Source: Flavobacteriales bacterium
GTDB taxonomy: Bacteria; Bacteroidota; Bacteroidia; NS11-12g; UBA955
Direction: 5' to 3'
Assembly (NCBI GenBank): GCA_947463125.1
Contig: CANHQZ010000006.1
Location: forward strand, 5,243 to 69,242
Length of the DNA: 64,000 nt
Shown here: piece by piece, positions 39,301 to 55,375 of the stretch
How positions within the stretch are numbered: the stretch's first letter is position 1
Layout: each line of letters opens with the position of its first letter
Made by a program: the position numbers and the translations under genes
The notes under the pieces: model-generated
The model's input: the letters and a program-made list of their open reading frames with translations, nothing else
The model's database searches: none
What the model was told of the DNA's origin: nothing

Positions 39301-39376
39301 GGTTCGGTAGCTCAGTTGGTAGAGCAAAGGACTGAAAATCCTTGTGTCGACGGTTCGATTCCGCCCCGAACCACCA
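39301..39376 (+). tRNA. tRNA-Phe (anticodon GAA), CCA encoded
   Basis: Manual cloverleaf. Acceptor GGTTCGG/CCGAACC is 7/7 paired. D arm GCTC-AGTTGGTA-GAGC. Anticodon arm AAGGA-CTGAAAA-TCCTT. 5-nt variable loop. T arm GACGG-TTCGATT-CCGCC has one A50:C64 mismatch. Discriminator A plus CCA. Confidence 0.9.
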
Positions 39377-39600: not shown

Positions 39601-40083
39601 TTACACACTCGGAAACTTCGGATACGGAATAAATCCTGCGGCAATATTGATAAGGGCCGGGGCAATCACAAAAGCCAGCACAATAATAATGATGGCATGG
39701 GTCCAGGCCAGCTCTACATTATTTTTGGTTAATTCCACATCTTCGTTTTCATGGGTAAGCATACCCACCACCAAGTAACTCAATCTGAAAAAGATGAGCG
39801 AAAAAACCCACATGCCGGCAAAGTAGCCCACGGCATAGGTGATGGCACTGGAAAGCTGGTTGTTCGAAATGAAGAATGTGAATGCCTGGTTCGTTAGATC
39901 GGCCACATGGTATAGGTTTATTCCTGCCATAAGCAGGGAAGAAACAAACACAATCAGCACCGCCTGATTTTTGGTAGGACTCGAGAATTTGGCGAAAAAG
40001 CGCTGTTGCAGTTTGGTAAATCCGAACATGTATCCGATTCCCAAAATCATCAGCACCAGTAGGTTCATTAATCCTGTATTCAT
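39601..40083 (-). CDS. Small polytopic membrane protein, DUF350-like (operon gene 7)
   Basis: 160 aa with 4 hydrophobic helices. LTHENEDVELTKNNVELAWTHA resembles the DUF350 (E. coli YjfL-type) core as I recall it. Not verified. Confidence 0.55.
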   Translation of the reverse strand: MNTGLMNLLVLMILGIGYMFGFTKLQQRFFAKFSSPTKNQAVLIVFVSSLLMAGINLYHVADLTNQAFTFFISNNQLSSAITYAVGYFAGMWVFSLIFFRLSYLVVGMLTHENEDVELTKNNVELAWTHAIIIIVLAFVIAPALINIAAGFIPYPKFPSV

Positions 40084-40099
40084 AGTTGTTGTATTATTT

Positions 40100-41008
40100 T
40101 TATCTGATAGGTACTACTTCCCAGTTTTTAAACATTTTCCAAACCGGAGCGCCCAGTTCGGCAACATTGTTGCGCTGAGTGCATTCCCAGGCATAATAGC
40201 GTTTTCCGCTGCGCATATCCCTTACAGAAAGGTCTCTGTAGGGCGGGTTGGGAACACATACGCCCAGCATGGCATGGTGCCCGGCCTCTACCTGCCCCAT
40301 CAGCATTTCTGCATCAAATCCCATGTTCAGATATTTGAGGATGGCCATGGCAAAAAGGGCTTTGGTATCGCAGTCGCCGGCCCCGTTAACTGCATATTCC
40401 AAAGGGGAATACACAGCAAATGGTTCCACATTGTCGCAACAGCCGTAGGGATATGGTTTTGGCTTGCAATCCTGTGGTGGTCTGCCTCCGCTGCCGCAGG
40501 GTTCCTGGCCCCAGGTAATGTAAGTGTAATTGAAATTCTGTGCGCTTGAAACCACCATTTGCATGGCTTGCCGGTAATCCAGTTTTTGCTCTTCAATGAT
40601 GTTGCGGTATCCCTCCACCATGTCTTTAAGGCCGGCCCTGTCATGCCTGAACATACCCGCCCAGCAATTAGGATCCGGTGACTGTTTCAAACGGTTTTCA
40701 CGAGCCGATTTATAGGCTTTTTTGGGAACGGTAAACTCGAGTGTATAGGTTTTGCCGTCAAAGGATTCCCATTTCCAGGTTCTTTTAATGGTGCCGCCTG
40801 TGTCCTTGTCCTGCCCATTGTCATCCTGTTCTTCCGCTTCCTGTCGGGCAATTTTATTCAAAGAGTCTTCTTCCAGATGTCGGCGGGTGAGTTCGTTTTC
40901 ATTAAACAACCCCAAATCCGATTTCAGGAAAGACAATACAATCAGCAAAACAATCAGCGCCCAAAACAACAGTTGGGAAACATTGAAATATTTCTTTTCG
41001 CGGGTCAT
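40100..41008 (-). CDS. Membrane-anchored transglutaminase-like (papain-fold Cys-His-Glu) protein (operon gene 6)
   Basis: N-terminal TM VSQLLFWALIVLLIVLSFL. C-terminal blocks GAGDCDTKALFAMAILKY, GHHAMLGV and YYAWECT parallel the transglutaminase-core pattern G-x-C-x-x-fA / HAW-x-ev / W-x-x-DpT. Paralog of 44918-45940. Confidence 0.6.
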   Translation of the reverse strand: MTREKKYFNVSQLLFWALIVLLIVLSFLKSDLGLFNENELTRRHLEEDSLNKIARQEAEEQDDNGQDKDTGGTIKRTWKWESFDGKTYTLEFTVPKKAYKSARENRLKQSPDPNCWAGMFRHDRAGLKDMVEGYRNIIEEQKLDYRQAMQMVVSSAQNFNYTYITWGQEPCGSGGRPPQDCKPKPYPYGCCDNVEPFAVYSPLEYAVNGAGDCDTKALFAMAILKYLNMGFDAEMLMGQVEAGHHAMLGVCVPNPPYRDLSVRDMRSGKRYYAWECTQRNNVAELGAPVWKMFKNWEVVPIR

Positions 41009-41943
41009 TTTTGCTCTGTCACAATTTGCCGACGGGCTTCATTTGAATATTTGTTGAAATACAATTTCATGTCTTTAATTTCCGTAAAAATAACATGACA
41101 GTATTTCTGCGTAATCAAATAATGATAGGTGGTTTTGTTGATTTCATGGAGTGCAAGTTCCTGCACATACGCGCCGTGTCTAACCTCCTGGGAGCGGTAT
41201 ATAATCAACAGGGGAATCATATAAATGGCCAGTACCATGATGTCCATCCACAACTTCCAGTTGCCCAGCCCCGAGGCCAGCGCATCAAAGGTGAGCAGCA
41301 AAGAATTTGCGTTGACCAAAATAAAAGGCTCATCAGGGTCGGGGGTTAGAATGTACTTGTAGGTCCAGTCTTCCGGCGGAAGTACCTGTTTCAGGTCGGC
41401 CAGTGCCATGTTGATTTGCTGGCTGAACATCAGTGTTTCCAGTCCGTTGGCAAATATTACGGCGAGCAGTGCCATCACAAATACCCGCACGGCAATGGTG
41501 AACAGGTTGCGCGGGGCATTGGGATTTACATCGATTTTGCTGCGCAATTTGTCTTTGGCGGTAACCGCCCAGCCTTTCAAAACCTCATCTGCATGCTGAT
41601 AAGCGGTTCCATCAAGCGCATACAAATTATGTTCACGGTAGTGGTTTTCATGTTTGGTGTGATAATGCGCAAGGGTACTGCCTTTCAGATCCAGGCCTGT
41701 CATTAGAAACAACCTGTACAGATTAAAAACAACTGCCCCGATAAATAGGCCTACCCCGATGGCAATAAGCCAGCTGTGGAAGAGTATGAGTGCATAGACG
41801 GTGGCTGAAACTGCGCTGATGAGACCAACAACCAACAGCATAAGCGAAATACCATTGAAAATGAATATCTGCCGCTTAACCACATCTGCAGGCAATTTCT
41901 GCATGATATCGCTGTCTATTCCTATTTGGTCGCTTAGCCGCAT
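41005..41943 (-). CDS. Polytopic membrane protein, divergent DUF4407-like paralog lacking the coiled coil (operon gene 5)
   Basis: GAVVFNLYRLFLMT and FANGLETLMFSQQIN align with IIFNLDRFIVSS and ISAPLEVYIFQKEID of the 42944-44119 product. About 5 hydrophobic helices. The stop overlaps the next start by 4 nt (ATGA). Confidence 0.55.
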   Translation of the reverse strand: MRLSDQIGIDSDIMQKLPADVVKRQIFIFNGISLMLLVVGLISAVSATVYALILFHSWLIAIGVGLFIGAVVFNLYRLFLMTGLDLKGSTLAHYHTKHENHYREHNLYALDGTAYQHADEVLKGWAVTAKDKLRSKIDVNPNAPRNLFTIAVRVFVMALLAVIFANGLETLMFSQQINMALADLKQVLPPEDWTYKYILTPDPDEPFILVNANSLLLTFDALASGLGNWKLWMDIMVLAIYMIPLLIIYRSQEVRHGAYVQELALHEINKTTYHYLITQKYCHVIFTEIKDMKLYFNKYSNEARRQIVTEQK

Positions 41944-41958
41944 TTTTTTATTTCAACA

Positions 41959-42930
41959 TTATTGCTGTGGGCAAAACAGGGTGTACTTCCATTTGGTATC
42001 GCTGCTGCCGCCGGTCACCCGCACTTCACAGTAGTCGTCTTTGTTGTACTGAAAGTCAAAAGAGATGGCTCCGCAGCATTTGGCGGCATTTTTCCCGCCT
42101 ACAAAACCGTTGACATTGCCTTGCACCTGTTTGGTTGATGCCACCAGGTTGCCTTCATAGAATACTTCCAGTTTATCGGGCACACTTTCCATGTCGTATT
42201 GTATCACAACCCTTCCGGACTGATTGCCGAGTATGTGCTTTTTCTCGGTAATACCGCGCCCCCCGGATTTGGCTGCCTGGCTGCATCCCATGGTGTTGTC
42301 GCCGTTTAGGCTGTCAATTTGCTTGCGCAACCGTGCCAGTTCTTCCTGACAATCCTTGCAATTGTTCAGTCCCAGATTACAGCCGCTGGGATTGCAGTTT
42401 CGGAGTAAAAGCAACAGCAACAGCAGCAAAAGCAACCATTTCAGAATATCCCATAATTTAGACAAACAGCCCTTGAATTGAGGGAATATGGGCGGTCTGT
42501 CGGGATTGGGCGGTTCCGGTGCAGGTGGTGGTGTTGGGTCAGGGGCATTGGAAGGTACCTTGATTTTTCCTAAAAAAGTGCCTTCCACAATGCCGTAGGT
42601 TTTTCCGTCAATTTCCCATGAATCCTTTACCCGTGCGTCTTTTATGATAACCTGTTCGAAATCGTAAACGATTTTTTCCTGTATATACTGCTTGTTGCCC
42701 GGATGCAGCTGAATGTTGGTAACGTTATACAGGTACAGGGCATCGCGGTTCAGGTGGTCTTCCGGCTTGAATTCTTTCAGCGGAACGATGTCGTGTAATT
42801 CCCCGCGGTACAGGCGCACATGGTGTTTATCGGGGCCCGGCATGGGCTGTCCGTCCACCAGGGTGCTGCCCTGATCGGTAAAGTAATTACCACTGAAGGT
42901 GCCCTGAACAAAAAGAAATGGAAGCGACAT
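41959..42930 (-). CDS. Bitopic orphan protein: N-domain / Pro-rich linker / poly-Leu TM / Cys-rich beta-domain (operon gene 4)
   Basis: 323 aa. PDPTPPPAPEPPNPDRPP, then LKWLLLLLLLLLLLRN, then NCNPSGCNLGLNNCKDCQEELARLRKQIDSL, and a C-terminal beta-rich domain with 4 more Cys. No family recognised. Confidence 0.55.
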   Translation of the reverse strand: MSLPFLFVQGTFSGNYFTDQGSTLVDGQPMPGPDKHHVRLYRGELHDIVPLKEFKPEDHLNRDALYLYNVTNIQLHPGNKQYIQEKIVYDFEQVIIKDARVKDSWEIDGKTYGIVEGTFLGKIKVPSNAPDPTPPPAPEPPNPDRPPIFPQFKGCLSKLWDILKWLLLLLLLLLLLRNCNPSGCNLGLNNCKDCQEELARLRKQIDSLNGDNTMGCSQAAKSGGRGITEKKHILGNQSGRVVIQYDMESVPDKLEVFYEGNLVASTKQVQGNVNGFVGGKNAAKCCGAISFDFQYNKDDYCEVRVTGGSSDTKWKYTLFCPQQ

Positions 42931-42943
42931 GCAGCCGATTTAC

Positions 42944-44119
42944 TTATGCTTGGTTATCGGGTTTTACGAAAGAGGCCGGGTCTTTCTGAATATCATCTTT
43001 TTCCTGTTTGGCAAACAGGGTAATGGCTTCTTTGGCATTTTCCTCTTCCTTCGCATTCTGGTGTTCCACAATGGCAATAATGCGTTTGGGGTTGTAGAAG
43101 CCTTTCATGGTGTGCAGCTTGTTATTTTCGTCGATGATATGCTCGCGGTTGATGCCCTGCTTGGTTTCCAGAATCTGGTTCACGTTTTCACTCATATAGT
43201 CATAGGGCGATTTGATGAGCATCAGTTTCAGCAGCACCGGTGCAATTTCAATAAACACAAACATCAGGCGAATCATCCATGCAGGGACGGAGGATCCGGG
43301 AATGGCATGGAGGGCCAACAACCTGTCCAGCAAACCATGTGAAGAGTTATTAACGTTGCTGAGTTCTTTGATTTTGGCTGTTTTTTCATCATCATATACC
43401 TGCAGTTTCTTATCAAGGTCAGCGATTTTATTTTTCCGTTCATCTATCCTGCCCATTACTTCCGTGGCCATACGCTTGAATTCCTCGCATTTGGGTCCAC
43501 ATCCGCCAAATTCTGTGGCGTTTTCTTTGGCAGCACGCTTTTGATAATCTTCCCTCTCTTTTTCAAGGTTTCTAATTTCTTCTTCCAGCAAAGCCTTGTC
43601 TTTATTGAGTTTATTGAATTCCGGTGATTTGGTATAAATATCTTCAATTTTCTTAATCTCGGCTTTTTGTTCTTCCTGGTCCAGTTTGTAAAACTGCTTG
43701 TCAATTTCTTTTTGAAAAATATAAACCTCAAGGGGTGCTGATATGGTAAAGCCCAATATCATGGCCATGGCCAGACGCGGGGTAGCATTGCCCAGTTCTT
43801 TGAGGGTGATGGTGTCTGTTCCATCGCCTTTGCCGGTGCTTGACACGATAAAGCGGTCCAGGTTAAAAATAATGGCGCCCCACAGCAATCCTACGGGAAT
43901 GGCAATGGCCACATTTTCAAAGATGTAGTTGATGGCAAAAAACATGGAAAGGCTGGCCAGAATCCCCGTGGCCAGCACGATGCCTCCAATACCTACGTAC
44001 TTTACATGATCGGCATAACTCGAATATTTTAAAATATCCTTGTCTGCACCGGCGCACCACCACAAAAATCGGGTGGCCCCTTTTGCCGGTTTGGCTGAAT
44101 AGTCTACATGTTCATTCAT
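42944..44119 (-). CDS. DUF4407-like membrane protein with long central coiled coil (operon gene 3)
   Basis: FLWWCAGADKDILKY...GIGGIVLATGILA...LLWGAIIFNLDRFIV matches my recollection of the DUF4407 N-terminal consensus. About 130 aa of Lys/Glu heptad-like sequence (EEQKAEIKKIEDIY...LEEEIRNLEKEREDYQKR) follows, then another TM (MIRLMFVFIEIAPVLLKLMLI). Confidence 0.6.
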   Translation of the reverse strand: MNEHVDYSAKPAKGATRFLWWCAGADKDILKYSSYADHVKYVGIGGIVLATGILASLSMFFAINYIFENVAIAIPVGLLWGAIIFNLDRFIVSSTGKGDGTDTITLKELGNATPRLAMAMILGFTISAPLEVYIFQKEIDKQFYKLDQEEQKAEIKKIEDIYTKSPEFNKLNKDKALLEEEIRNLEKEREDYQKRAAKENATEFGGCGPKCEEFKRMATEVMGRIDERKNKIADLDKKLQVYDDEKTAKIKELSNVNNSSHGLLDRLLALHAIPGSSVPAWMIRLMFVFIEIAPVLLKLMLIKSPYDYMSENVNQILETKQGINREHIIDENNKLHTMKGFYNPKRIIAIVEHQNAKEEENAKEAITLFAKQEKDDIQKDPASFVKPDNQA

Positions 44120-44135
44120 GATGTATAATTATTTT

Positions 44136-44918
44136 TTATTGTTTGATTGTGTTGGAATAGTCGGTTTCGTTTTCGTTAAAGAAATGTTTGATAGCATTGT
44201 ATTTGGTGGTGCTGTAGTTGTATACAGCGAGTATCCGTCTCTTGTCCAGTGCGGTATGCAATTCACGTCTTTTATCGTTGCGCAGTGCCACCGGCTCCGG
44301 GTTTAGGTGGCTGACATTCGGTCCGATGAGGGAATTCCTGCTGCCAACGATGGGTTGGTCTTTGGTGAAACGCCTGTTTTGTGGCAGCGATTCAGTTAAG
44401 GGCTCCGTGGCCAGTGTCCTGTTGTTTCCGGTGGTGACCAGATCTCCCAGCGGTGCCACATCCAGGTGGTACAAGTCACGGTCCGGGATGCGTATGCCAG
44501 CAGTTACGGTTTTGCCGTTAAATCCTGTGGCGGTAAGGGTATATTGCGGCTGTGAAGCGTCAATGATAACAGTGGCAGCATTTCCGTTCAGTGACTTTCC
44601 AACCGGATGAATGTCAATGTTTTTTGCCCCTGTTACTTTCCATATTAAGGTTGCAGCGCAACCATCAATAAATATGCCTTCACCGGCAACCTCAGCATAT
44701 AGTTCGGCTCCCTGCCGGTCTTTGCCTACATACACATGCGGCGAGGATTCCAATTCAAAGAATTCAATTTGCAACGGCTGGGGTTTCATCAAATGCAGAA
44801 TGTATCTTTTAATGAATGATGCATAGGGAATAATGATCATGCAGGCAGCCACCAGCAGAAAAAGCAGCAGTTGTGTGCTTTTATCGAGTTCGCTGAGCCA
44901 TTCAAAAAAACTATACAT
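44136..44918 (-). CDS. Single-pass orphan membrane protein with beta-rich ectodomain (operon gene 2)
   Basis: TM TQLLLFLLVAACMIIIPYASFI followed by a Thr/Gly/Val-rich, Ig-like-looking region (TLIWKVTGAKNIDIHP...YTLTATGFNGKTVTAGIRI). The start ATG shares 1 nt with the upstream stop (TAATG). Confidence 0.55.
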   Translation of the reverse strand: MYSFFEWLSELDKSTQLLLFLLVAACMIIIPYASFIKRYILHLMKPQPLQIEFFELESSPHVYVGKDRQGAELYAEVAGEGIFIDGCAATLIWKVTGAKNIDIHPVGKSLNGNAATVIIDASQPQYTLTATGFNGKTVTAGIRIPDRDLYHLDVAPLGDLVTTGNNRTLATEPLTESLPQNRRFTKDQPIVGSRNSLIGPNVSHLNPEPVALRNDKRRELHTALDKRRILAVYNYSTTKYNAIKHFFNENETDYSNTIKQ

Positions 44919-45940
44919 TATACCAGTGGTCTAATCTCTGTTAATTGAAAAGAAACCCAGTCAAAACTGCCGATGGCGCTGGGTGCGGTGGTTTCAAGCA
45001 GAAGGTAAGATTTGCCGTTGTGAAGGATGCTTTCTCCTGAAATTTGTAGGTCAGATACGGCCGCCATGGCATGGGCACCATTGCTTCTGCTGTGAGAAGA
45101 CTTTACCGTACAGCGCACAATGACAATGTTTTCCTTGGGTATGAGGTGGGAGAGGATGGATGCAAAAAACAGCGATTTGCTGTCGCAATCGGCATAACCC
45201 AATACAAAGCTTTCGGGCGGAAGGCTCAGTCCGTAATAATACCATTCTTCGGAATCGAAGTTGGGCTGACCGTAGGGAATAAATTGTATAAAATTCAGCG
45301 CGGCCTGCACCCGGTTAAAATAGTTGTCTTTGTTGTGTGCCGATAATTGTTCTTTCAGGTCTGCGGCAATTTTGCCTGTGAGCGAATCGTACTGATGGAT
45401 TAACTGATGATAAGCTACCCCAAAATTGTTTTCATCCTCATAAAACCACCCGTTGCTGTTAAAATGAAGCTGTATTTGTGCCGATGTAACATTGGGGGCT
45501 ATTCGAAATCCATCAGGCGATACTTCCACTACACTGCGCGACATTCCAAACGTGTCAGCCTGCCGCGATGTTTCTACCGGTTCCATTACAATGTGAGACC
45601 GTCCCCTGATTTTTTGAATCAGAGGATATTCATACACAAAGGAAGCACTGTTGCCTTCCAGGGTGCCTTTGATAAAATGCTGGTAGGACCCATATTCCAC
45701 CGGAGGCCTGCGGTATTCCTTTGTTTTGGTTTTGTGCTGGGTCAGAAATTCAATGAGGGTTAAATGTTTGTCCGGAAGATATTCTGAAGCACCTCCTGAT
45801 TTGTATTGCATTTCAAAGCCAGCCAGGTAGAAAACCAGAAATAGGCAGAGCAGAGGAATGACATACAAGCTGGCCATGAATTGAGATAGAGGGTAGTAAG
45901 GTTGGCAATAATATTCAATAACTTCCGTAAATGAAAACAA
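44918..45940 (-). CDS. Membrane-anchored transglutaminase-like (Cys-His-Glu) protein (operon gene 1)
   Basis: TM ASLYVIPLLCLFLVFYLAGF. Blocks GYADCDSKSLFFASILSHL, GAHAMAAV and YLLLETT are paralogous to 40100-41008. The track start is TTG 45940. ATG 45877 (MASLYVIPLL...) is an equally plausible start. Confidence 0.6.
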   Translation of the reverse strand: MFSFTEVIEYYCQPYYPLSQFMASLYVIPLLCLFLVFYLAGFEMQYKSGGASEYLPDKHLTLIEFLTQHKTKTKEYRRPPVEYGSYQHFIKGTLEGNSASFVYEYPLIQKIRGRSHIVMEPVETSRQADTFGMSRSVVEVSPDGFRIAPNVTSAQIQLHFNSNGWFYEDENNFGVAYHQLIHQYDSLTGKIAADLKEQLSAHNKDNYFNRVQAALNFIQFIPYGQPNFDSEEWYYYGLSLPPESFVLGYADCDSKSLFFASILSHLIPKENIVIVRCTVKSSHSRSNGAHAMAAVSDLQISGESILHNGKSYLLLETTAPSAIGSFDWVSFQLTEIRPLV

Positions 45941-46042
45941 AAAGTACTATTTAATTCATTATACTGTTTTTTGAAGTTTTTATTTATAAAATATATTCTA
46001 TTTTTTAATATTTAAATATTTAATTTATTGCATTTCTGACTT

Positions 46043-46594
46043 TCAATTTATGATTTTACAGTTATCCGTTTTTAACATTTCATGAAGTTGAACGGCTGTA
46101 AATTGCAATAAATCCCCCTTCAGTGTTTCCCTTTTCTGCTTCGCATTTTCCCTAAGCCATTTCCCCTCACAAAACCTCCTTAGTTCAGTCTCATTTTGCA
46201 ATAGCAGTCCCGGAACCTCTTTTAAACTACCATCGTCGTTTTTGGCTACCATGGTGAAATAGCAGGAGTTGGTGTGTGTGGATTGACTGGTGCGGGGATT
46301 GAAGGCTTCCACCCGCATTCCGATAATCATGCTGGTTTTGCCAACATAGTTTACAGAAGCTTTCACGGTAACCAAATCTCCAACCTCCACCGGTGAGAGA
46401 AATTCCACACCCTCCACTGCCACCGTAACCACATAGCTTCCGCTGTGTTTTGTAGCACACACATAGGCAACTTTATCCATGATGGATAACAAAACACCTC
46501 CGTGCACTTTTCCTCCGAAATTAGCATAGGAGGGAATCATAAGTTCTGTATAGATGGTTTCAGATTCCTGAATACTTTTCATTTTAACAAACAT
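46043..46594 (-). CDS. Acyl-CoA thioesterase (hotdog fold)
   Basis: ELMIPSYANFGGKVHGGVLLSIMDKVAYVCA and VTVAVEGVEFLSPVEVGDLVTVKASVNYVGKTSM are typical of YciA/Acot-type thioesterases. Confidence 0.8.
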   Translation of the reverse strand: MFVKMKSIQESETIYTELMIPSYANFGGKVHGGVLLSIMDKVAYVCATKHSGSYVVTVAVEGVEFLSPVEVGDLVTVKASVNYVGKTSMIIGMRVEAFNPRTSQSTHTNSCYFTMVAKNDDGSLKEVPGLLLQNETELRRFCEGKWLRENAKQKRETLKGDLLQFTAVQLHEMLKTDNCKIIN

Positions 46595-46640: not shown

Positions 46641-47990
46641 ATGATGGGTGTTCAAATTCCTGAAGTGCAAAGCGCCATTATTAAAGTAACCTCTGTGTTT
46701 GCATACAAGCCGGAAGATGTTGTTAAATTTAGAAAAGCCGGTTATAAAGATGCTCCAATAGGAGATCATACAACTGACTATGATGATGCATCAACCAAAT
46801 CTTTTTATCGCGATAAATATTATCGTGAATATTATAAGATGATGCTGGTTAGCGAGGGCAATGGAGCCGGCATGACGGCGCTCAGGCGTGATCTTCCTAT
46901 CAAACTGAATATTTCGGATGATTGGGGAAAGTATCATTTAAAAGATTTGAGTTGCGATTGTCAGGATCTTTATCTTTTTAATCATGGAATCGGTATTTTA
47001 TCATTGTCCTTTAATATCGGAAAAATTAGTTTTCAGGAACTTAGCAATGTGATTTTTGTTCTTAGACTATTCGAATCGAGAATTAAGCAATCGGATAATA
47101 CAGAAATTGCATTTCATCAATTTATTTCAAATCAAATACTGGAAGGCATTGCCCTCCGCCGCACCGATGCTAAAGACAATGGCGATGTGGGGATTTCGGA
47201 TGACTATAGCGGGTCAAAGTTTAAGATATATTCAATTATCAATTCAGATCAGTCTGAAGAAAAAAGGGAAAAGTTACTCTATGAATTAGGAACAGGGTCT
47301 AAAATCGGTATCGTCGGCAGCAATGATTATCAGGCCCCTGCAACTGTGTATTATAATGAGTTAATGAAATCCGGTATCAGACTTTTTAATAATTACACGG
47401 GTCTTGCCCTGCAAGATTCTTTTACTGTTATTGGTCATAATATTTATGATTCGGAGAAAAGAGACATTAAATATAATACCTGGAACAAGGTTTATTTTTC
47501 CATATATATTTATAATTTGTACATACGATACAATGTGTTTCGTTATAATACCATTTTCAATGATGATGAAATTAAAACCAGAGATGAATTTCAAAATTTC
47601 ATCAATCGCTATAACATGTCTCACATATCCTTTGACTTTCTGCCCAATATCCTCCACCGCAAAATTCACGATGCCTTGGGCATTGATGAAGAAGTAGCCC
47701 ATTTTGAAAAACGCCTGGCCAATCTGGCAACCAGTATTCAGGAAAAGCAGAGCAATCGGCAGCAATTTCTGTTGTTCGTGGTTTCTGCAATTACAGGCCT
47801 CTCGTCATACAAAGAAATTTATGCGTTTTTAGAAATGATTAGATTGAAATTGCAATGGGATATGATGCCGTTTTATTCGATTCTAATTTTATTTACATTG
47901 ATTGCCGGATTTTTTGTGTTGTCATGGCTCTATCCGCATCAGTCCAGGAAACTGAAAAAAAGGGCCAGAATGAAGTTGAATAAAGGATGA
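46641..47990 (+). CDS. Orphan protein with large soluble N-domain and C-terminal helical hairpin (2 TM), CorA-like architecture without a GMN motif
   Basis: 449 aa with AT-rich codon usage. The C-terminus has FLLFVVSAITGLSS and FYSILILFTLIAGFFVLSWLY followed by a basic tail RKLKKRARMKLNKG. No motif recognised. Confidence 0.5.
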   Translation: MMGVQIPEVQSAIIKVTSVFAYKPEDVVKFRKAGYKDAPIGDHTTDYDDASTKSFYRDKYYREYYKMMLVSEGNGAGMTALRRDLPIKLNISDDWGKYHLKDLSCDCQDLYLFNHGIGILSLSFNIGKISFQELSNVIFVLRLFESRIKQSDNTEIAFHQFISNQILEGIALRRTDAKDNGDVGISDDYSGSKFKIYSIINSDQSEEKREKLLYELGTGSKIGIVGSNDYQAPATVYYNELMKSGIRLFNNYTGLALQDSFTVIGHNIYDSEKRDIKYNTWNKVYFSIYIYNLYIRYNVFRYNTIFNDDEIKTRDEFQNFINRYNMSHISFDFLPNILHRKIHDALGIDEEVAHFEKRLANLATSIQEKQSNRQQFLLFVVSAITGLSSYKEIYAFLEMIRLKLQWDMMPFYSILILFTLIAGFFVLSWLYPHQSRKLKKRARMKLNKG

Positions 47991-48003
47991 TGAGGTTGGG
48001 CAA

Positions 48004-48477
48004 TTGGAGTATTTAGTTACTGATAAGGCAAGAGAACACTGCAAGCAGCACTTTAGTGATTCGGAAAAATCAGGCAGTAAGTTTAATGCTGCGGTTTTTC
48101 CAAGTTTAGACAGCATTTTGGCTGCAATCAAAAGCATTGAGCCCAAACGAATTGTTGAGCAAAGCTCAGGCAGGTTTGCCCATGTTTATGAATTACATGG
48201 ATATTGCGGCTGGTCCGGTGTAGGAAAACGGGCCGACTACAACAGAATTGAAACCGAAATAAGAAACGGATTTATTACAGAATTTGCCGTTGTTGAATCC
48301 CTGCCCCAAACCCGGCTGTTAACAGTCATTTCGGAATTTATTGATGGTGCAAATACCTTAATCACCCTTTTCCCGGGCGATTATGCGCCACCGTTTCCTT
48401 ATGATGGAATGATGCCGGAGGAAAAAGAAAAAGCAGTATTGTTTTGGCAAGAAAATATATTGTTAAAAATGGGCTGA
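48004..48477 (+). CDS. Orphan 157-aa protein
   Basis: TTG start 13 nt after the upstream stop. No recognisable motif. Ends 10 nt from the convergent STAND gene stop. Confidence 0.4.
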   Translation: MEYLVTDKAREHCKQHFSDSEKSGSKFNAAVFPSLDSILAAIKSIEPKRIVEQSSGRFAHVYELHGYCGWSGVGKRADYNRIETEIRNGFITEFAVVESLPQTRLLTVISEFIDGANTLITLFPGDYAPPFPYDGMMPEEKEKAVLFWQENILLKMG

Positions 48478-48487
48478 TTAAAACCGA

Positions 48488-51400
48488 TTAGTGTAACTTC
48501 ATCCATTCAGGCAATTCATTCTCTCGTCCTAATTTTTTTGCAAGCTTTTTTGATTTTTTAATGATTCTTAAATGAAGTCCGTCGCGCTTTTGGTTATCCT
48601 CATTCTTTTTGTTCAATTCTGCTGCCTGTAGGTAATAAGAAAGTGCATCGTTGGGATTTTCCCATGCCACATAACAATTTCCAATCTTGTCCATAAACAA
48701 CGCATCGTTGTGTATGTCAAATCCCTGATTGTAAACATCAATTGCGGCCTGATACTGCCCTGCCTTAAGGTAAGAGTCGCCCAAATCAGACAATATTTCA
48801 GATACATCTTTGTGCTCGCGTCCCAGGTATTTTATTTTCAGATCAAGGCTCTTTTTATAAAATTCTATGGCTTTTTCATAGTCTCTTTTCTTTCTCCATG
48901 CAGCGCCAATATTTCTGTAAGATAACGCGAGAGAAAAATGATCTGTGCCAAAGTTTTTTAGTTTAATTCTCAGGCTCTCTGAGTACCACCTCAGGGCCTC
49001 GTCATATTGGCCCTGGTCGGCCCATAAAAACCCAACATTGTTGTAAACGGGAGCTAACGATGTGTTGTCTGCACCCAGTACTTTTAACTTTATGTCAATG
49101 CTCTTTTCGTAGTAGGAAAGTGCTTTTTCGTGTTCGCCCTTTTTTCGCCAAACCGCGCCAATATTGCTGTAGGAGGCTGACAGGGAAGGATGCATTGCGC
49201 CAAGCCGTTTTAATTTTAAATCAACACTTTTGTGATAGAATTCCAGCGCTTTGTCCAGTTCTCCTTTTTTTACTTCCGCTAACCCTATGCTGTTCAACAA
49301 TCCCGCTACCGATGGGTCATTATCTCCTAAAACCTTTAACTTGATATTCAAGCTTTTGTGGTAAAAAATAAGTGCCTGGTCATAGTTTCCGTATTTCGCC
49401 ACACATCTGCCTAACAGGCTTAACAGGTTATGGTCATTTTCAATCAGGGCTTGTGATTTATGTATTTCGGTCAGATAATATACAGCCTGGTTTTTGTCAA
49501 AGCAGGTAATTATTGCTATCAATCCCAGCCAAATTGATTCTATATGCGTGAATTGATTTTGCTTCATTAATTCCGTGAGGAATTCCTTGCGCAGTGCGTG
49601 CAACCGCAATTTTGTCAGGTTTTTATCCAGTTCGAGCAGCGCTTTCCAGTCATTTGCCGTTCCGTGCTGCATTAACTTGTTTAGGGTGTTCGCTACTCCG
49701 AAAGTTTTTAAATACAGCAGCGAAGGTTTAATGCAAATGTCAAGATAGTCATCACCGGCATCAATAAGCTGCGTAGTAAGGGTAAAGTTGTCATCCAAAG
49801 CCAGTTCACATAGCATGGCTTCCAGCGCAAATCGCTGCAGCTTTGAACCCTGTTTGAGTAGGTCTTTGGCACTTTTTAAATGAATGGCAGGTTCTTGTTT
49901 GCGTAAGTGTGCGCCCAGCATATAAAGCAATGCGCCCTCAACCGTGAATGACAGGTAAGCGTTCAGGTCTTTGGTATAGCGACTTAACCATCCCAGGTTT
50001 TTAAGACGGGGATATGGATCATTTTGAACATCTGAGTTAAAGTATGGTTTCAGCCTTTCCGAATTGATCAAATCGTCCAGTAACAGTTCATTTTCCCCCT
50101 TTTCCCATACCGCTTCTACCAGCAGTTCCATGAATACTCGTTCTTTTGCAGAAAAGGATTCCAGCCAGTCGCGCCATATATTAAGATGCCTGTTTCCGCT
50201 TTTGGGCAGTGTTTTTTGGTGGTAGGTTTCAAGGAAAATTCTTAATACAAGCGGGTTGTTGATTTGATTGTAAATGGAACGGTCAAAATCTGCTATATCT
50301 GAAAATGTAAACCGTGGGTTGAATTTGTTTTTATGTTTCCGGGTGTAAATGTTCCAGGCTTCCTGCATTTCTGCCATGTTCATGGCAGTGAGCCAGTTGA
50401 TGAAAACCGCCAGACCATTTTCGCCTTCCGGATTTTCTCCGTACAACAATTCCTGTTCGTTTTCATTTAAAGTAAACCGCTGTATGTCTGCACCCGTATT
50501 GGCCCTGCTGGCAACAATAAATTTTAGCCTTCCGGCATCAAATATTTTACTGATGGCAAGGATTTCCTCCCATACATCTTCGGCGTTGATTGCCTCATTC
50601 AATCCGTCTATCAGGATGGTGGTTGGGGTGTCCTGGGTTCCGGCAAGTGCCTGATAATTTTCAAGCCCCTCCCTGGGGTTGATATTGAGGATAAAGGCAA
50701 GATGCTCTGTCAACGAGTTCTTCTCCATCCTGCCTGCACGAATTAGCAGGCAAGGCAGGTTCAGTTTTGAATATTGTCTTTGTATTTCAACCAGCAGATT
50801 GGTTTTTCCGCTGCCGGCCTCTGCTGCGATAAAAAAAATGTTGGCAGCAGAGCCAATCCATTCATGCAGTTTTTGCTCAATCTCTTTGCGGTTAATGTAA
50901 ATTTCCGGAAGAATCTTTTTTTCATGGATAAGGTTGTCTGTGAGCAATTTGTTTTCTTCGGCTATCCTGCTGATAAATACCTGCTTAGTGAATTCTGCAG
51001 GTGTATAATTGGTTTCGTTTTGCTTTTCACGAAGCAGTAGGTTTAGCTTGTTAAGAGTCTTTCCTGAAGTCTGTTTTTCAGTGCCCTCCGGACTGAAAAA
51101 TTTGATGGTTTTACCGGTGTGGGATTCGTAAATGAAAATTTGCTCCTTGTCTTCTTTGGAAAGAGAAACTTCACCCGGGACAATATAAAATGGCAGGATG
51201 TCAAACTGCTCTTGCTTTTGGTTTTCAATCCAAACCCTTGCAGGCTTTTGTTGCCCCTTTTCAACTGTGTTTATTTCTGCCGATTTCAGTAAATAGGTTT
51301 CACCGTGCTCGTGCTTGTACATGGGAGCAGGCTCTGATTTTAATAAGTCTGTCAGAAGGTATTTAAAAACAGGATAATATTCCTGCCAGATATTCTCTGA

Positions 51401-52006
51401 AACCGAGTCAGGCGGGGTCAGCGAATGGCCTATGTGCCTGTTGCGAAAATTAATAAGCATCCCAATACCTGTGGCTTCCTGTTTCTTCAATTGAACATCT
51501 CCGTTTATATCCGTGTATTCAATTTCTCCTTTGAAGAGGGTTCTTTTTTTGCCGGTTTCAACCCGTTCGTAATGGTTGAAGATTCCACTGTCAAAAAAGG
51601 TATGTTGCCTAGTCTTCAGATACTTAATGGTTTCTCGGATAAATTCATTCCACGAGCCAAAGGAAGGTTCGGCAATGGTTTTATGAAACAGAGCGACCAT
51701 GTTTCTATCCCTTAACGGGCTGTTGAAAAATTCAGAAGCAGTAATAAGGCCTATATATTTCAGGTAGTTGAGAAATGTATCTTTTAATAAATTGATTTTC
51801 CTCCAGGGATTTTGTTCCTCCAGGGCCCGTTTCAGTGGGTCGGCAATGACATACGGCAATTCCCGGATAAGTTGTATTTCCTCTTCGCTGAATGCAACAG
51901 CGCTAACCAGCGGCGTGCCGCATACGGGGCAGTTTTTTATTTCAGGTGGAAACTCTGCCTTTGTGCCGGCCATTAAGCAGTTTTGATTTTGGCAGCGAAA
52001 ACCCAT
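48488..52006 (-). CDS. STAND NTPase: N-terminal Zn-ribbon + unknown about 380-aa domain / NACHT-type P-loop / C-terminal TPR array
   Basis: CQNQNC...CPVCGTPL zinc ribbon. Walker A FFIAAEAGSGKTNLL. NACHT-style Walker B TTILIDGLNEA. Sensor-1-like KFIVASRAN. At least 6 tandem 42-aa TPR pairs of the kinesin-light-chain type (YDQALIFYHKSLNIKLKVLG... EKALSYYEKSIDIKLKVLG... EKAIEFYKKSLDLKIKYLG). Confidence 0.8.
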   Translation of the reverse strand: MGFRCQNQNCLMAGTKAEFPPEIKNCPVCGTPLVSAVAFSEEEIQLIRELPYVIADPLKRALEEQNPWRKINLLKDTFLNYLKYIGLITASEFFNSPLRDRNMVALFHKTIAEPSFGSWNEFIRETIKYLKTRQHTFFDSGIFNHYERVETGKKRTLFKGEIEYTDINGDVQLKKQEATGIGMLINFRNRHIGHSLTPPDSVSENIWQEYYPVFKYLLTDLLKSEPAPMYKHEHGETYLLKSAEINTVEKGQQKPARVWIENQKQEQFDILPFYIVPGEVSLSKEDKEQIFIYESHTGKTIKFFSPEGTEKQTSGKTLNKLNLLLREKQNETNYTPAEFTKQVFISRIAEENKLLTDNLIHEKKILPEIYINRKEIEQKLHEWIGSAANIFFIAAEAGSGKTNLLVEIQRQYSKLNLPCLLIRAGRMEKNSLTEHLAFILNINPREGLENYQALAGTQDTPTTILIDGLNEAINAEDVWEEILAISKIFDAGRLKFIVASRANTGADIQRFTLNENEQELLYGENPEGENGLAVFINWLTAMNMAEMQEAWNIYTRKHKNKFNPRFTFSDIADFDRSIYNQINNPLVLRIFLETYHQKTLPKSGNRHLNIWRDWLESFSAKERVFMELLVEAVWEKGENELLLDDLINSERLKPYFNSDVQNDPYPRLKNLGWLSRYTKDLNAYLSFTVEGALLYMLGAHLRKQEPAIHLKSAKDLLKQGSKLQRFALEAMLCELALDDNFTLTTQLIDAGDDYLDICIKPSLLYLKTFGVANTLNKLMQHGTANDWKALLELDKNLTKLRLHALRKEFLTELMKQNQFTHIESIWLGLIAIITCFDKNQAVYYLTEIHKSQALIENDHNLLSLLGRCVAKYGNYDQALIFYHKSLNIKLKVLGDNDPSVAGLLNSIGLAEVKKGELDKALEFYHKSVDLKLKRLGAMHPSLSASYSNIGAVWRKKGEHEKALSYYEKSIDIKLKVLGADNTSLAPVYNNVGFLWADQGQYDEALRWYSESLRIKLKNFGTDHFSLALSYRNIGAAWRKKRDYEKAIEFYKKSLDLKIKYLGREHKDVSEILSDLGDSYLKAGQYQAAIDVYNQGFDIHNDALFMDKIGNCYVAWENPNDALSYYLQAAELNKKNEDNQKRDGLHLRIIKKSKKLAKKLGRENELPEWMKLH

Positions 52007-52570
52007 TGTGCGAAGTTATATTTTAAACGCTGAAATAGCTCTTTCGTTTTAATCAGGGATTTTGTGCATTCTTTTATTCTCTTTCAAATAGTGCTCAAAA
52101 GGTTATTTCATCGCATTCACACGTGTATCTTTATGGGCAACATACTGCAGTGTTGATCGGCTTAATCCTAAAACAATGTTTTTCATGACTTTATGTTGAT
52201 TGGGGATTCAGTATGTTGGCTGCAATTGCTGTAAAATCCCCATTAATTCGCTGTTTTGGTGGGCGTTTTCAGATTATCACTACCCAATTTCCATTCAGCT
52301 TCATTGATAAAATCAGGTTTTTGTCAAGTATAGTTATCCACATTTTCAAAAAATTTCTTTTTTCAATACTGAAGTATCCGAGTTTTAATAAAATTACCTG
52401 AAAATCAATGTTAATAGGCTAATAAGATTCGATTATCTGAATTTATTGTGATGTTTTTGTTGTGGATAAACGTGGTGGTTGCCCCGTAATATACAAAAAA
52501 AATGAAGACAAGGCAAACACAATTGCATTTTCTATGTTCATTTGTGTACATCATTAAAATACATACACGT

Positions 52571-53296
52571 ATGGAACATTTCAACCTATTGACGACTAAC
52601 GTCATCGCAGCCGACAACTACGTAGCCTTTACGTTTTTCATCGGCACCATGGCCATGATGGCCGCATCTGTGTTCTTCTTCTTTGAACTGGGTAACACCT
52701 CTAAAGACTGGAGAACTTCTGTTCTTGTTTCCGGTATCATTACCTTCATTGCAGCTGTGCATTATTATTACATGCGCGGCTACAACTTGGAAACCGGTGG
52801 AGAATCACCCGTATTCTTCCGCTATGTGGACTGGTTGCTGACTGTGCCTTTGATGTGCGTGGAATTCTACCTCATCACCAAAAAGGCCGGTGCTAAAGTA
52901 GGTCTGCTGTGGAAACTTATTTTTGCTTCAGTAATCATGCTGGTTACCGGCTACTGGGGTGAAGCTGTTGCCCGCAATCAGGCTGCCTTCTGGGGTCTGG
53001 TTTCAGGTCTGGCTTACTTCTGGATCGTTTGGATGGTATGGAAAGGCGAAGTTGCTCAGCTTTCAAAAGCCAGCAGCCCTGCTGTACAGAAAGCCATCGA
53101 TTCTCTGTTGAAGTTCGTTGTTATCGGATGGGGTATTTATCCCCTGGGTTACCTGGTAGGTACTGCCGATGGTCAGTGGTACGAGTTCTGCAAGAACTGG
53201 AACCTGAACATGGACATCATCTACAACATCGGTGATGCCGTGAACAAAATCGGTTTTGGTCTGGTTGTATATGCCCTGAGCAGAAGCGAAGACTAA
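52571..53296 (+). CDS. Microbial rhodopsin, proteorhodopsin-type light-driven proton pump (DTE motif)
   Basis: Seven hydrophobic helices. Helix C is FRYVDWLLTVPLMCVEFY (D/T/E at the PR 97/101/108 equivalents, Met at tuning position 105). Helix-B His (AAVHYYYMRGY). Helix G carries the Schiff-base Lys (IGDAVNKIGFGLVVY). Start at ATG 52571 (MEHFNLL). Confidence 0.9.
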   Translation: MEHFNLLTTNVIAADNYVAFTFFIGTMAMMAASVFFFFELGNTSKDWRTSVLVSGIITFIAAVHYYYMRGYNLETGGESPVFFRYVDWLLTVPLMCVEFYLITKKAGAKVGLLWKLIFASVIMLVTGYWGEAVARNQAAFWGLVSGLAYFWIVWMVWKGEVAQLSKASSPAVQKAIDSLLKFVVIGWGIYPLGYLVGTADGQWYEFCKNWNLNMDIIYNIGDAVNKIGFGLVVYALSRSED

Positions 53297-53312
53297 GACA
53301 ATATACACTTTA

Positions 53313-53351
53313 CAAAAAAGGGGTTCTGATTTTATCATGAACCCCTTTTTT
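53313..53351 (+). terminator. Rho-independent terminator directly after the rhodopsin gene
   Basis: aaaaaAGGGGTTC-tgattttatcat-GAACCCCTttttt. 8-bp stem 53319-53326/53339-53346 followed by a T-run. Confidence 0.8.
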
Positions 53352-53362
53352 ATAAGCAAACC

Positions 53363-55375
53363 ATGAACCCCAAAAGCCATATTAACTGTGATTACCTGTT
53401 TGCCGGTACAGGTGCATCTGCCACTTTGCTGCTGATGCGCATGGAGAAGGCGGGTTTGCTTGCCGGTAAGAAGGTGGTGCTTTTGGATACCGATTTTACC
53501 TCGTTGAGCCGCAAGACATTTTGTTTTTGGGCAAAGCCTGATGACAACATCGTGCGGGATTGCCATGGGCTGATTCAAAAAACCTGGAATCATCTGCGCA
53601 TTGACAGGGGAGTTGAGAGTGTACTGAAACCCCTGCAATACCATTACATCCCCGGTGAGAATATGAAAAATGCCATGCTGGCACTGGCTGAACGAAATGC
53701 TTGTGAAATGCTTGAATCTGCTGTTGTTTCCATGATTTCCGATGATTCGGGGGTGGTGGTCACCACCGGGGCCGGTTCCTATCTCGCAGCCCGGGTATTC
53801 GACAGCAGACCCGCAGGCTTTATGGCACCAAAACCCAATGAAACCAGCCTTTTTCAGTCATTTATAGGCTACATGATTGAACCGGAACACCCGATTGCAA
53901 ATACCGATTCCATGGATATGATGGATTTTGGTGTTGATCAGCAGGGTGCAACCCAGTTTATGTATGTGCTGCCGCTCTCAGAAAGAAAAGCACTGGTGGA
54001 ACTTACCCGCTTTGGGATAAAGAAGATAACCGAACCGGAAGCTGCACCGGTGCTGGAAAATTATATACAGCGGCATTTTGGAAATGCACGTATTCTGGAA
54101 ACCGAAACCGGTTGTATTCCTATGTGTTCTGCGCCGCTGGAGATTACAGAACTGGAAGGGGTAACCCGCCTGGGAAGCCGTGCAGGAGCAATTAAGCCAG
54201 GAACAGGTTATGCTTTTAAAAACATGCACCGGCAGGCAGCGGAAATAACCCTGCAGTTACAGAATAAGCAGGTTTTTGAAACGAAGCATGCATCTGCGCG
54301 CTTCAAATTCTATGACCGCCTTCTGCTCCGTATTCTCGCCGTCAGTCCGGATTGGGGGAAGCCAATCTTTCAGCAGTTGTTCAGAAAAAACAGCACCCCG
54401 CAAATTCTGCAGTTTTTGGATGAAAAAACCACCCTGCGTCAGGATGCAGGTATTCTGCTGAGTTTGCCCTTTCGCCCATTTTTAGCCGCTTTGAAACAGG
54501 ATGTCAGATACAATCCGCCGGCCATGTTAAAACCGGTTTTGCTTACGTTGCTGTCCCTGCTGTTTTGGTTTGTTTATGCTATTTCCCCTTCCGTGTTTTT
54601 CCCGCTGCAATGGGCCTTTATTGGTGTTGGCTTGTTGGCCGTCGGAATACCCCACGGTGCACTTGATCATCTGCTGGAATCGGGAAAGGTGCAGGGCAGG
54701 GCTGAACCTTTGTTTGTTGCAAAGTACCTAGCTATTATGCTGCTGTATCTTCTGCTTTGGTGGTTGCAGCCCTGGGGCGCCCTGGTTGTATTTCTGGGGT
54801 ATTCGGCATTTCATTTTGGCCAGTCTGACATTCAGGAGTGGCAAATTACCCGCTATCCCAATCTTAAGTCATTTTTATGGGGAATAATAATGCTGGGGAT
54901 TATCCTGTTCTCTCACCTCGAAGAGGCGATGGCTATTGTCAATGGTATGGGTGTCGCTTTTGCCGGCATAAATCCCGGAGAATCCCTTATTTATATGCTG
55001 GTGTTGGCAGTCCTTTTATGGGCTTTGGTTGAGAAAAACGCGGCTATTTTGCTGAGTTTGCTAATGCTGGTAATTGGCACGCAATTGCCGCTGCCTGCAG
55101 CTTTCGGGCTGTATTTTATCGGGCAGCACAGCCTGAACGGATGGTCGCATTTACAAAAGGGAATGGGAGCAGCAGGTGAAACCCTTTTCCGCAAGGCGCT
55201 TCCATTTACTTTCGGCGCTTTGATATTGCTGGGTTTATTAATGATGTTGGTTTACACAGGAATCATGCCCTGGACACACCAGCAGTGGATTTCTGTATTC
55301 TTTGTTTTTCTTGCCTGCCTTAGCCTGCCCCATGTGTGGGCCATGCACCGCTTTTATAACCGCAGCGGAAAGTAA
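53363..55375 (+). CDS. Fused lycopene beta-cyclase (CrtY-type) / Brp-Blh beta-carotene 15,15'-dioxygenase
   Basis: The N-terminal about 385 aa have FAD fold DYLFAGTGASATLLL, FMYVLP, ETGCIPM, GSRAGAIKPGTGYAF and FLDEKTT. The C-terminal about 285 aa are polytopic with the four Blh His blocks GIPHGALDH, SAFHFGQSD, GQHSLNGW and LSLPHVW. One uninterrupted ORF of 670 aa. Confidence 0.8.
   Translation: MNPKSHINCDYLFAGTGASATLLLMRMEKAGLLAGKKVVLLDTDFTSLSRKTFCFWAKPDDNIVRDCHGLIQKTWNHLRIDRGVESVLKPLQYHYIPGENMKNAMLALAERNACEMLESAVVSMISDDSGVVVTTGAGSYLAARVFDSRPAGFMAPKPNETSLFQSFIGYMIEPEHPIANTDSMDMMDFGVDQQGATQFMYVLPLSERKALVELTRFGIKKITEPEAAPVLENYIQRHFGNARILETETGCIPMCSAPLEITELEGVTRLGSRAGAIKPGTGYAFKNMHRQAAEITLQLQNKQVFETKHASARFKFYDRLLLRILAVSPDWGKPIFQQLFRKNSTPQILQFLDEKTTLRQDAGILLSLPFRPFLAALKQDVRYNPPAMLKPVLLTLLSLLFWFVYAISPSVFFPLQWAFIGVGLLAVGIPHGALDHLLESGKVQGRAEPLFVAKYLAIMLLYLLLWWLQPWGALVVFLGYSAFHFGQSDIQEWQITRYPNLKSFLWGIIMLGIILFSHLEEAMAIVNGMGVAFAGINPGESLIYMLVLAVLLWALVEKNAAILLSLLMLVIGTQLPLPAAFGLYFIGQHSLNGWSHLQKGMGAAGETLFRKALPFTFGALILLGLLMMLVYTGIMPWTHQQWISVFFVFLACLSLPHVWAMHRFYNRSGK

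Follow-up and report, generated by a model that had tools for sequence, protein, structure and literature searches.

The stretch analysed here (the window) consists of 64,000 nucleotides from a Flavobacteriales bacterium (assembly GCA_947463125.1, contig CANHQZ010000006.1, positions 5,243 to 69,242 of the forward strand). It contains a gene for an NLR-like protein of the STAND type, which is the subject of this text. The listing of open reading frames (ORFs) confirms the gene as given in the original prediction, an earlier note made on this DNA from its sequence: it begins with an ATG and encodes a product of 1172 residues. It is also monocistronic, as had been proposed. On one side a 495-bp AT-rich intergenic gap (GC content 0.327) separates it from a divergent rhodopsin gene, and on the other it meets a convergent ORF of 157 residues, the two stop codons lying exactly 10 nt apart (TGA at 48475-48477; TAA, read on the reverse strand, at 48488-48490), the distance that had been claimed. 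The gene had further been placed in the most AT-rich part of the window. This is true of the trough between 45 and 53 kb in which it lies, but not of the gene itself, whose GC content is 0.421 against 0.463 for the window; the minimum of 0.362 belongs to the neighbouring gene for a 449-residue protein. The product is a single-chain NLR-like protein with the layout effector, STAND switch and TPR sensor (Table 1). This layout had been anticipated, and the motifs, the TPR array and an NTPase profile that lies nearest to Avs2 and NLRC4 bear it out.

Table 1. Features of the STAND gene and of its surroundings in the window (AF2, AlphaFold2; KLC, kinesin light chain)
Feature	Residues	Coordinates	Strand	Basis
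Whole gene, Zn-ribbon / HEPN-like / STAND NTPase / TPR, stop codon included		48488..52006	−	ORF listing
Zinc ribbon, swappable cap	1-40	51887..52006	−	N-terminal segments of 120 homologs
Helical HEPN-like domain, with beta-hairpin insert at residues 157-179	41-230	51317..51886	−	AF2 model, Pfam matches of relatives, 8xdj
R-N-R-H-I-G-H, predicted HEPN catalytic motif (Rx5H)	188-194	51425..51445	−	conservation in 78 N-modules
Small beta-rich region and very conserved segment (ILPFYIVPGE…YESHTGKTIKFFSPEGTEKQTSGK)	231-350	50957..51316	−	conservation profile
NACHT-like STAND NTPase with winged-helix/helical continuation	351-720	49847..50956	−	invariant motifs, PDB profile matches
Walker A, AGSGKT	397-402	50801-50818	−	
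Walker B, ILIDGLNEA	464-472	50591-50617	−	
Sensor 1, S500-R501 in FIVASRAN	500-501		−	
Helical linker or pre-TPR region	721-860	49427..49846	−	lower conservation; Pfam TPR_NPHP3 match at residues 809-976
TPR sensor, KLC/NPHP3 type	861-1172	48491..49426	−	TPR_12 matches, repeat reading
Convergent pair (whole module)		46641..48477	+	
CorA-like 449-residue membrane protein, first gene of the pair		46641..47990	+	
157-residue protein, second gene of the pair		48004..48477	+	
Eight-gene operon: 4HBT thioesterase, p340, p260, DUF4407, p323, DUF4407-like p312, p302, DUF350		39601..46594	−	
Single tRNA gene, at the edge of the DUF350 operon		39301..39373	+	Rfam, 69.4 bits
Bacteriorhodopsin-family gene, then fused lycopene cyclase and beta-carotene 15,15'-dioxygenase (Blh)		52502..55375	+	Pfam E=3e-40 for the rhodopsin

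Judged by its sequence, the central region is a STAND NTPase of NACHT-like character. A GSGKT Walker A, an ILIDGLNEA Walker B and an ASR sensor had been pointed out in it; all three are present, and their key residues are retained throughout a comparison set of 15 divergent relatives that are 21-39% identical to the window protein over the NTPase region. In this set G398, G400, K401, T402, D467 and R501 are invariant, while G468 and E471 are conserved in at least 90%. The Walker A consensus GxxxxGK[ST], the Walker B pattern hhhhD with the acidic pair completed by G-x-x-E/D, and the sensor-1 arginine are all found. When a profile of residues 360-700 from the same 15 relatives was searched against the PDB, Avs2 (9o4e) was matched from Walker A to sensor 1 with E=1.7e-8, followed by NLRC4 (E=1.5e-3) and the NB-ARC protein 9h2l (E=6.7e-3). 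In Pfam, the window protein has a sub-threshold match to NPHP3_N (E=1.3e-3; 19.4 bits against a cut-off of 24.8 bits), a weak match to AAA_35 and none to NACHT (PF05729), while some homologs carry precomputed matches to PF05729 or PF24883. The resemblance to Avs-type and bNACHT proteins had been noted in the original prediction; in PADLOC, however, no bNACHT or Avs model matches, the scan having returned the generic TPR model PDLC01169 only, and the protein is not counted as a member of these named families.

The C-terminus had been described as a series of KLC-type TPR repeats, and this is supported by both profile matches and direct reading. Five exact 42-residue units occupy residues 878-1087 and are followed by two degenerate units; TPR_12 matches over five stretches (E=3.9e-59) and TPR_10 with E=1.6e-32. 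Among the top 120 homologs protein length ranges from 995 to 1470 residues, and the variation lies mostly within the TPR region.

The part of the protein that precedes the NTPase had been described as some 380 residues with no recognisable motif, and a new effector or adaptor domain had been suggested. The first statement was fair at first sight, because no Pfam, NCBIfam or PADLOC model matches residues 1-365 of the window protein; direct searches with residues 1-395 or 1-850 likewise returned nothing from Pfam, NCBIfam, PADLOC or the sequences in the PDB. A motif does emerge, however, once relatives are considered. A profile of the N-terminal module (N-module), searched against 1.84 billion representative proteins at E≤1e-3, found 342, nearly all of them proteins of 1000-2100 residues with the module at or near the N-terminus. 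In an alignment of 78 N-modules from these representatives (17-64% identity to the window protein), the only near-invariant positions are P51, A55, K83, L87, W119, R188, N189, H194 and R373. R188 (99%), N189 (99%) and H194 (97%) are the sole near-invariant polar residues of the helical core. Their arrangement, R188-N189-x4-H194, fits the Rx4-6H signature of HEPN domains with a polar residue after the arginine, and the canonical form [FY]RNxxAHG is present in distant members.

Profile searches with relatives point in the same direction. When the N-terminal regions of 39 divergent relatives were scanned with Pfam, HEPN_RiboL-PSP was matched by 13 (best E 2.7e-5), HEPN_MAE_28990 by 12 (best E 1.8e-4) and HEPN_Swt1 by five (best E 0.049), with single matches each to HEPN_Apea and HepT-like; any non-HEPN family was matched by one or two members. 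The HEPN matches map to the motif-bearing C-terminal part of each Pfam model. An NCBIfam scan of the same 39 modules, which served as a control for specificity, gave only single-member noise. The top PDB sequence match of the N-module profile is the HEPN toxin 8xdj (E=0.028), whose alignment covers the motif helix and the next one, and this toxin, HEPN_RiboL-PSP and HEPN_MAE_28990 are the only families that recur in N-module sequence searches. A bridging search with the N-module profile for HEPN relatives annotated by Pfam recovered only fragments of the same family. Structure prediction was carried out twice. The first AF2 model (residues 1-395, 18 close homologs) was mediocre, with a predicted local distance difference test score (pLDDT) of 70, and its Foldseek output was noise. 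The second (residues 40-272, 39 divergent sequences) reached a pLDDT of 94.7 and a predicted template modelling score (pTM) of 0.91; in this helical model the motif closes helix 180-192, a long helix spans residues 200-223, and a small beta region comes next. The HEPN signature of the core and the recurring sub-threshold matches in relatives speak against a new effector or adaptor domain. That the N-module is a HEPN domain is very probable and well supported at the level of sequence, and structurally unconfirmed.

Four findings tell against the HEPN assignment. The window protein itself matches no HEPN model even at E≤10, and the motif of its subfamily, FRNR[HY][IL]GH (RNxxxGH), has a one-residue insertion. 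All HEPN matches of the relatives fall under the Pfam gathering scores, the best reaching 24.6 bits against a cut-off of 28.4 bits. Lastly, the AlphaFold and Foldseek check proposed in the original prediction gave a confident fold but no structural neighbour: the pLDDT-94.7 model yielded no HEPN or other match in the PDB or BFVD, none with E<0.07, and it is for this reason that the call lacks structural confirmation. The sub-threshold profile matches and the empty Foldseek search would both suit an N-module that is a catalytically inert helical scaffold or adaptor, which keeps the RN…H motif and acts by recruiting a partner, or which leaves the role of effector to residues 231-350. The conservation within the close family agrees with this, since it is highest not around the HEPN motif but at residues 273-322 (51041..51190), the stretch PFYIVPGE…YESHTGKTIKFFSPEGTEKQTSGK. 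In the wider family, on the other hand, it is R188, N189 and H194 that stay invariant, and residues 273-322 are just moderately conserved across the 78 N-modules. Inactive HEPN domains usually lose the arginine or the histidine (Table 1 of PMC3710099), and the gene does not regularly share an operon with any candidate partner. An inert scaffold is therefore improbable, the least likely of the alternatives weighed here, and an active, divergent HEPN-type RNase is the preferred reading of the N-module.

The beta strands that precede this segment (residues 229-269) are modelled confidently in the second AF2 model, whereas residues 273-322 have a pLDDT below 50 in the first. Outside the family the segment has no homolog. 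Possibly it serves as an interface, folding only in contact with the NTPase or a partner.

At the extreme N-terminus a zinc ribbon had been proposed, with the spacing CxxC…CxxC. The ribbon is there, with the minor correction that its cysteines (C5, C10, C26 and C29) read Cx4C…CxxC. The cysteine pattern is kept in about 100 of 120 homologs. In 13 of the 120 a SAM domain stands in its place, matching Pfam SAM_1 and SAM_2 (PF00536 / PF07647); these include P0016, P0019, P0021 and P0024, in which the remainder of the protein is still about 60% identical. From these sequences the extreme N-terminus looks like a site at which caps, zinc ribbon or SAM, are exchanged. Distant relatives have N-terminal extensions of 140-400 residues in which no Pfam domain was found. 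As a speculation, either cap may tune auto-inhibition, RNA binding or higher-order assembly.

The window protein has at least 482 homologs. The best 120 are 54-61% identical to it over residues 1-850, save five close relatives at 78-100%, and bear no annotation beyond 'TPR repeat protein' or 'hypothetical'. In a scan of 185,579 species, one genome each, with two invariant peptides as the query, 32 loci were found, a lower bound because the scan rests on these two peptides. All of them are in metagenome-assembled genomes (MAGs) of lake, reservoir or river origin. The labels are mostly Flavobacteriales, Chitinophagaceae, Crocinitomicaceae, Saprospira or Owenweeksia, and two are from outside the Bacteroidota (Comamonadaceae and Candidatus Falkowbacteria). 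The GC content of the family's loci ranges from 29 to 48%. One MAG holds two copies of the STAND gene; in several loci other STAND/TPR genes adjoin the family member, and the order of genes varies. A uniform single-copy core gene with conserved synteny, which according to the original prediction would have spoken for a housekeeping protein, is thus not what the family resembles.

The gene also diverges faster than its surroundings. In comparison with its closest relatives (loci L005 and L006) it is 77% identical, against 90% for the flanking 4HBT gene and 97% for DUF4407. The difference is unevenly spread along the protein, as identity to L006 is 62% in the zinc-ribbon cap, 80% in the HEPN-like domain (residues 41-230), 82% in residues 231-350, 76% in the NTPase (351-560), 85% in the winged-helix/helical part (561-860) and 66% in the TPR region, where more distant relatives share only 22-39%. 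No other parts of the protein diverge as fast as the TPR region and the cap. A role as a housekeeping core gene was rejected, since the gene is patchily distributed, occurs twice in one MAG and outpaces its flanking genes in divergence.

With a probability of roughly 0.6, the gene encodes an NLR-like STAND protein whose effector is predicted to be a divergent HEPN-type RNase. Because the N-module is most likely such an RNase, the protein is placed among the bacterial NLR-like immune sensors, in a class that had been predicted before. The rarity of the family, the MAG with two copies, the adjacent STAND/TPR genes, the swapping of caps, the identity of 77% against 90-97% and the rapid change of the TPR region suggest evolution of the conflict type. 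In Avs and NLR proteins, a target bound on the repeat sensor drives oligomerisation of the NTPase (PMC13581612). By analogy, the TPR array would bind a foreign protein or peptide, most plausibly derived from a phage, and binding would lift auto-inhibition and allow NTP-dependent oligomerisation. HEPN RNases such as Csm6, RNase L/Ire1 and Cas13 build their active site across a HEPN dimer. Since HEPN active sites form in this way, oligomerisation of the STAND would juxtapose the N-terminal HEPN domains and so switch on metal-independent cleavage of RNA, upon which the infected cell would stop growing or die (abortive infection). The protein would work alone, as it is monocistronic and has no operon partner.

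The conflict role has its own counter-evidence. For a defence gene, residues 1-850 show unusually high conservation (54-61% between hosts), and there is some synteny, in that part of the neighbourhood (4HBT and DUF4407…DUF350) recurs across relatives. No PADLOC model of a defence system matches, and of the ORFs scanned from 29.7 to 55.4 kb of the window none encodes an integrase or another mobile-element protein. The outer flanks are housekeeping or physiological in nature (MnmE, α-amylase, rhodopsin and a crtY-blh fusion), and every host is uncultured, being represented by MAGs. Conservation, partial synteny, the missing system match and the lack of mobile elements, to which may be added that no relatives were found in IMG/VR viral contigs, GenBank phages or PLSDB plasmids, would fit a non-immune signalling STAND that gates turnover of the cell's own RNA by a ligand, as in dormancy, stress or envelope stress, and that is mostly inherited vertically in freshwater Bacteroidota. 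A protein of that sort would not be expected to be so patchy in its distribution or to occur twice in one MAG, beside STAND/TPR paralogs, with variable repeat number and exchanged caps. Nor does it account for divergence well beyond that of the neighbouring genes with the sensor changing fastest, and the Pfam scan of the window protein found no DNA-binding output domain of the kind present in regulators of the MalT/AfsR type. Non-immune signalling is accordingly considered unlikely, and the conflict sensor with a predicted RNase effector is preferred. Origin from a mobile element was a separate candidate, rejected on the same searches of viral, phage and plasmid collections and on the absence of an integrase among the scanned neighbouring ORFs.

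The two genes that converge on the STAND gene had been regarded as an orphan module. They instead form a conserved pair that recurs near relatives of the STAND gene. The 449-residue protein has weak PADLOC matches to CorA-like models (5.9e-5 and 4.1e-4), no Pfam match and no GMN motif visible in its sequence; one clear C-terminal transmembrane segment lies at residues 407-425. The 157-residue protein belongs to the 's185' partner family, whose members at other loci are partners of 160-190 residues. Of 38 loci, 16 have a CorA-like gene no more than about 7 kb from a family member; among them the gene order takes at least seven forms, and in about half of the 16 the small partner was detected alongside. 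Comparison of the window with its closest relatives gives an identity of just 43-45% for the pair, where flanking genes reach 90-97%.

This recurrence raises the question of a multi-gene system, in which the HEPN-STAND-TPR sensor would act with the CorA-like protein and its small partner as a membrane effector, perhaps together with the DUF4407…DUF350 operon as an envelope component. The family of the pair, with 131 matches, is similar to that of the STAND protein in its small size and narrow ecological range, and the flanking genes change far more slowly than either the STAND gene or the pair. The pair also adjoins a split three-gene STAND/TPR set in one locus (L040) and NACHT/TPR genes in another (L042), and a block equivalent to the operon, DUF4407-p380-OmpA-p547-DUF350-4HBT, stands beside STAND/TPR genes or CorA-like pairs in at least nine other loci. 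In the window, however, which has the closest arrangement, the genes are convergent and not co-transcribed. Elsewhere distance and orientation vary, for many family members the nearest 10 kb contain no pair, and in two loci (L038 and L039) the pair is found without any STAND gene nearby. Co-location could also reflect a common variable hotspot in related genomes. No adaptor domain shared between the N-module and either the CorA-like or the 157-residue protein was detected, and a link of this kind was rejected. A multi-gene system of this composition is doubtful, and so is its more specific form, an undescribed conflict system of freshwater Bacteroidota that would couple an RNase sensor to a CorA-like effector with residues 231-350 as a new coupling domain. 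The single-chain sensor remains the favoured account, and the recurrence of the DUF4407 block may mark either a variable hotspot common to these genomes or a functional connection.

A PADLOC scan of 139 non-redundant neighbours of relatives gave as defence candidates PDC-S01 (three times), PDC-S02, AbiEii, a DRT-type reverse transcriptase, IetA-like proteins (twice) and WYL proteins (twice). Examples near family members are at L013:1000-2298, L025:3802-5511 and other loci, with E-values of 8e-175 for PDC-S01 and 4e-29 for an IetA-like ATPase. The presence of defence candidates among the neighbours is suggestive support for a conflict role; as raw counts without a baseline, the figures belong in that respect with the points against it. 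The split STAND/TPR system consists of three consecutive genes (L040:12080-18410 and L004:19991-23618), encoding a protein of about 510 residues without a domain match, an NPHP3_N/AAA_16 NTPase of about 500 residues and a TPR protein of about 1100-1290 residues.

Some further observations concern the neighbouring genes. The 157-residue protein resembles (E=7e-4) residues 1535-1597 of a 1603-residue protein (L020:587-5398) encoded next to a family member; because this is the extreme C-terminus of the larger protein, the resemblance suggests that the 157-residue protein corresponds to a detachable domain. A protein 100% identical to the CorA-like product (P0271) is encoded on an NCBI MAG contig of 592,745 bp labelled 'Sphingomonadales bacterium'. 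This label is probably wrong, since window genes carry sorting domains of the Bacteroidota type IX secretion system (Por_Secre_tail, CHU_C) and relatives are from Bacteroidota. A search of the literature on DUF4407 found nothing relevant. Directly upstream of the STAND gene, and divergent from it, the rhodopsin gene and the cyclase-Blh fusion make up a compact retinal-rhodopsin cassette.

The kind of protein described here is already known, because fusions of an N-terminal HEPN domain to a STAND, with TPR or S1 domains, were catalogued in 2013 (Anantharaman et al. 2013, Biol Direct 8:15; PMC3710099), and the domains recorded on bacterial NACHT proteins include ZnR, TPR and, as an effector, HEPN (Kibby et al., bioRxiv 2022.07.19.500537). 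Examples of the former are Npun_F6454, MED222_16016, Desac_1927 and B. cereus gi 229028907 (PMC3710099). Set side by side by description, these fusions and the window family share an N-terminal HEPN with Rx4-6H, a STAND NTPase and helical repeats, as well as the same predicted role as an RNase in conflict or abortive infection. The window family differs in that its HEPN is missed at threshold by the Swt1-like and other HEPN models of Pfam, in that it has a beta-hairpin insert, an extra conserved module of 120 residues and a zinc-ribbon or SAM cap, and in its restriction to uncultured freshwater Bacteroidota. With bNACHT proteins the window protein shares the NACHT-style Walker A, the Walker B hhhhDGxxE, the sensor-1 arginine and the order effector, NTPase, repeat sensor; unlike them it has no PF05729 match and no PADLOC bNACHT match, and its NPHP3_N match is sub-threshold.

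TPR-like sensors dominate among defence STANDs (PMC13581612). Similarity to Avs/AVAST proteins (Avs1-4, Avs7; PMC13581612) lies in the NTPase, for which Avs2 9o4e is the best solved relative, in the TPR-type sensor, in an N-terminal effector of nuclease type (predicted in the present case) and in activation, which would be expected to follow from target-induced oligomerisation. In contrast, the Avs effector described there is a DNase (Cap4), while that of the window protein is a predicted RNase, its sensor is a short, regular array of 42-residue KLC-type TPRs, and it has no PADLOC Avs match. A further comparison is with the HepT toxin of HEPN-MNT modules (8xdj) and the Pfam families HEPN_RiboL-PSP and HEPN_MAE_28990, with which the N-module has in common an RNxxxH motif helix and, after it, a long C-terminal helix. 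Here the similarity spans only about 45-90 residues, with E between 1e-2 and 1e-5; moreover no MNT antitoxin accompanies the window gene, the domain being fused to a STAND switch instead of being under antitoxin control. What appears to be new, on sequence grounds, is the specific and previously unannotated family, with a divergent HEPN domain that current models miss. To this may be added the conserved module at residues 231-350, the swappable cap, the restricted ecological range and the recurrent CorA-like neighbour.

The architecture having been predicted in 2013, the finding is conceptually a modest step, unless the CorA-like connection turns out to be real. If the favoured reading is true, the family would be an uncatalogued group of NLR-like immune proteins with an RNase output, whose effector and defence role go undetected by Pfam, NCBIfam and PADLOC. 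It would offer a clean test case of whether oligomerisation of a STAND can gate a HEPN RNase through induced dimerisation, and the small, regular TPR sensor could ease mapping of the trigger. The hosts are abundant uncultured freshwater Bacteroidota, a group whose repertoire of phage defences is poorly known.

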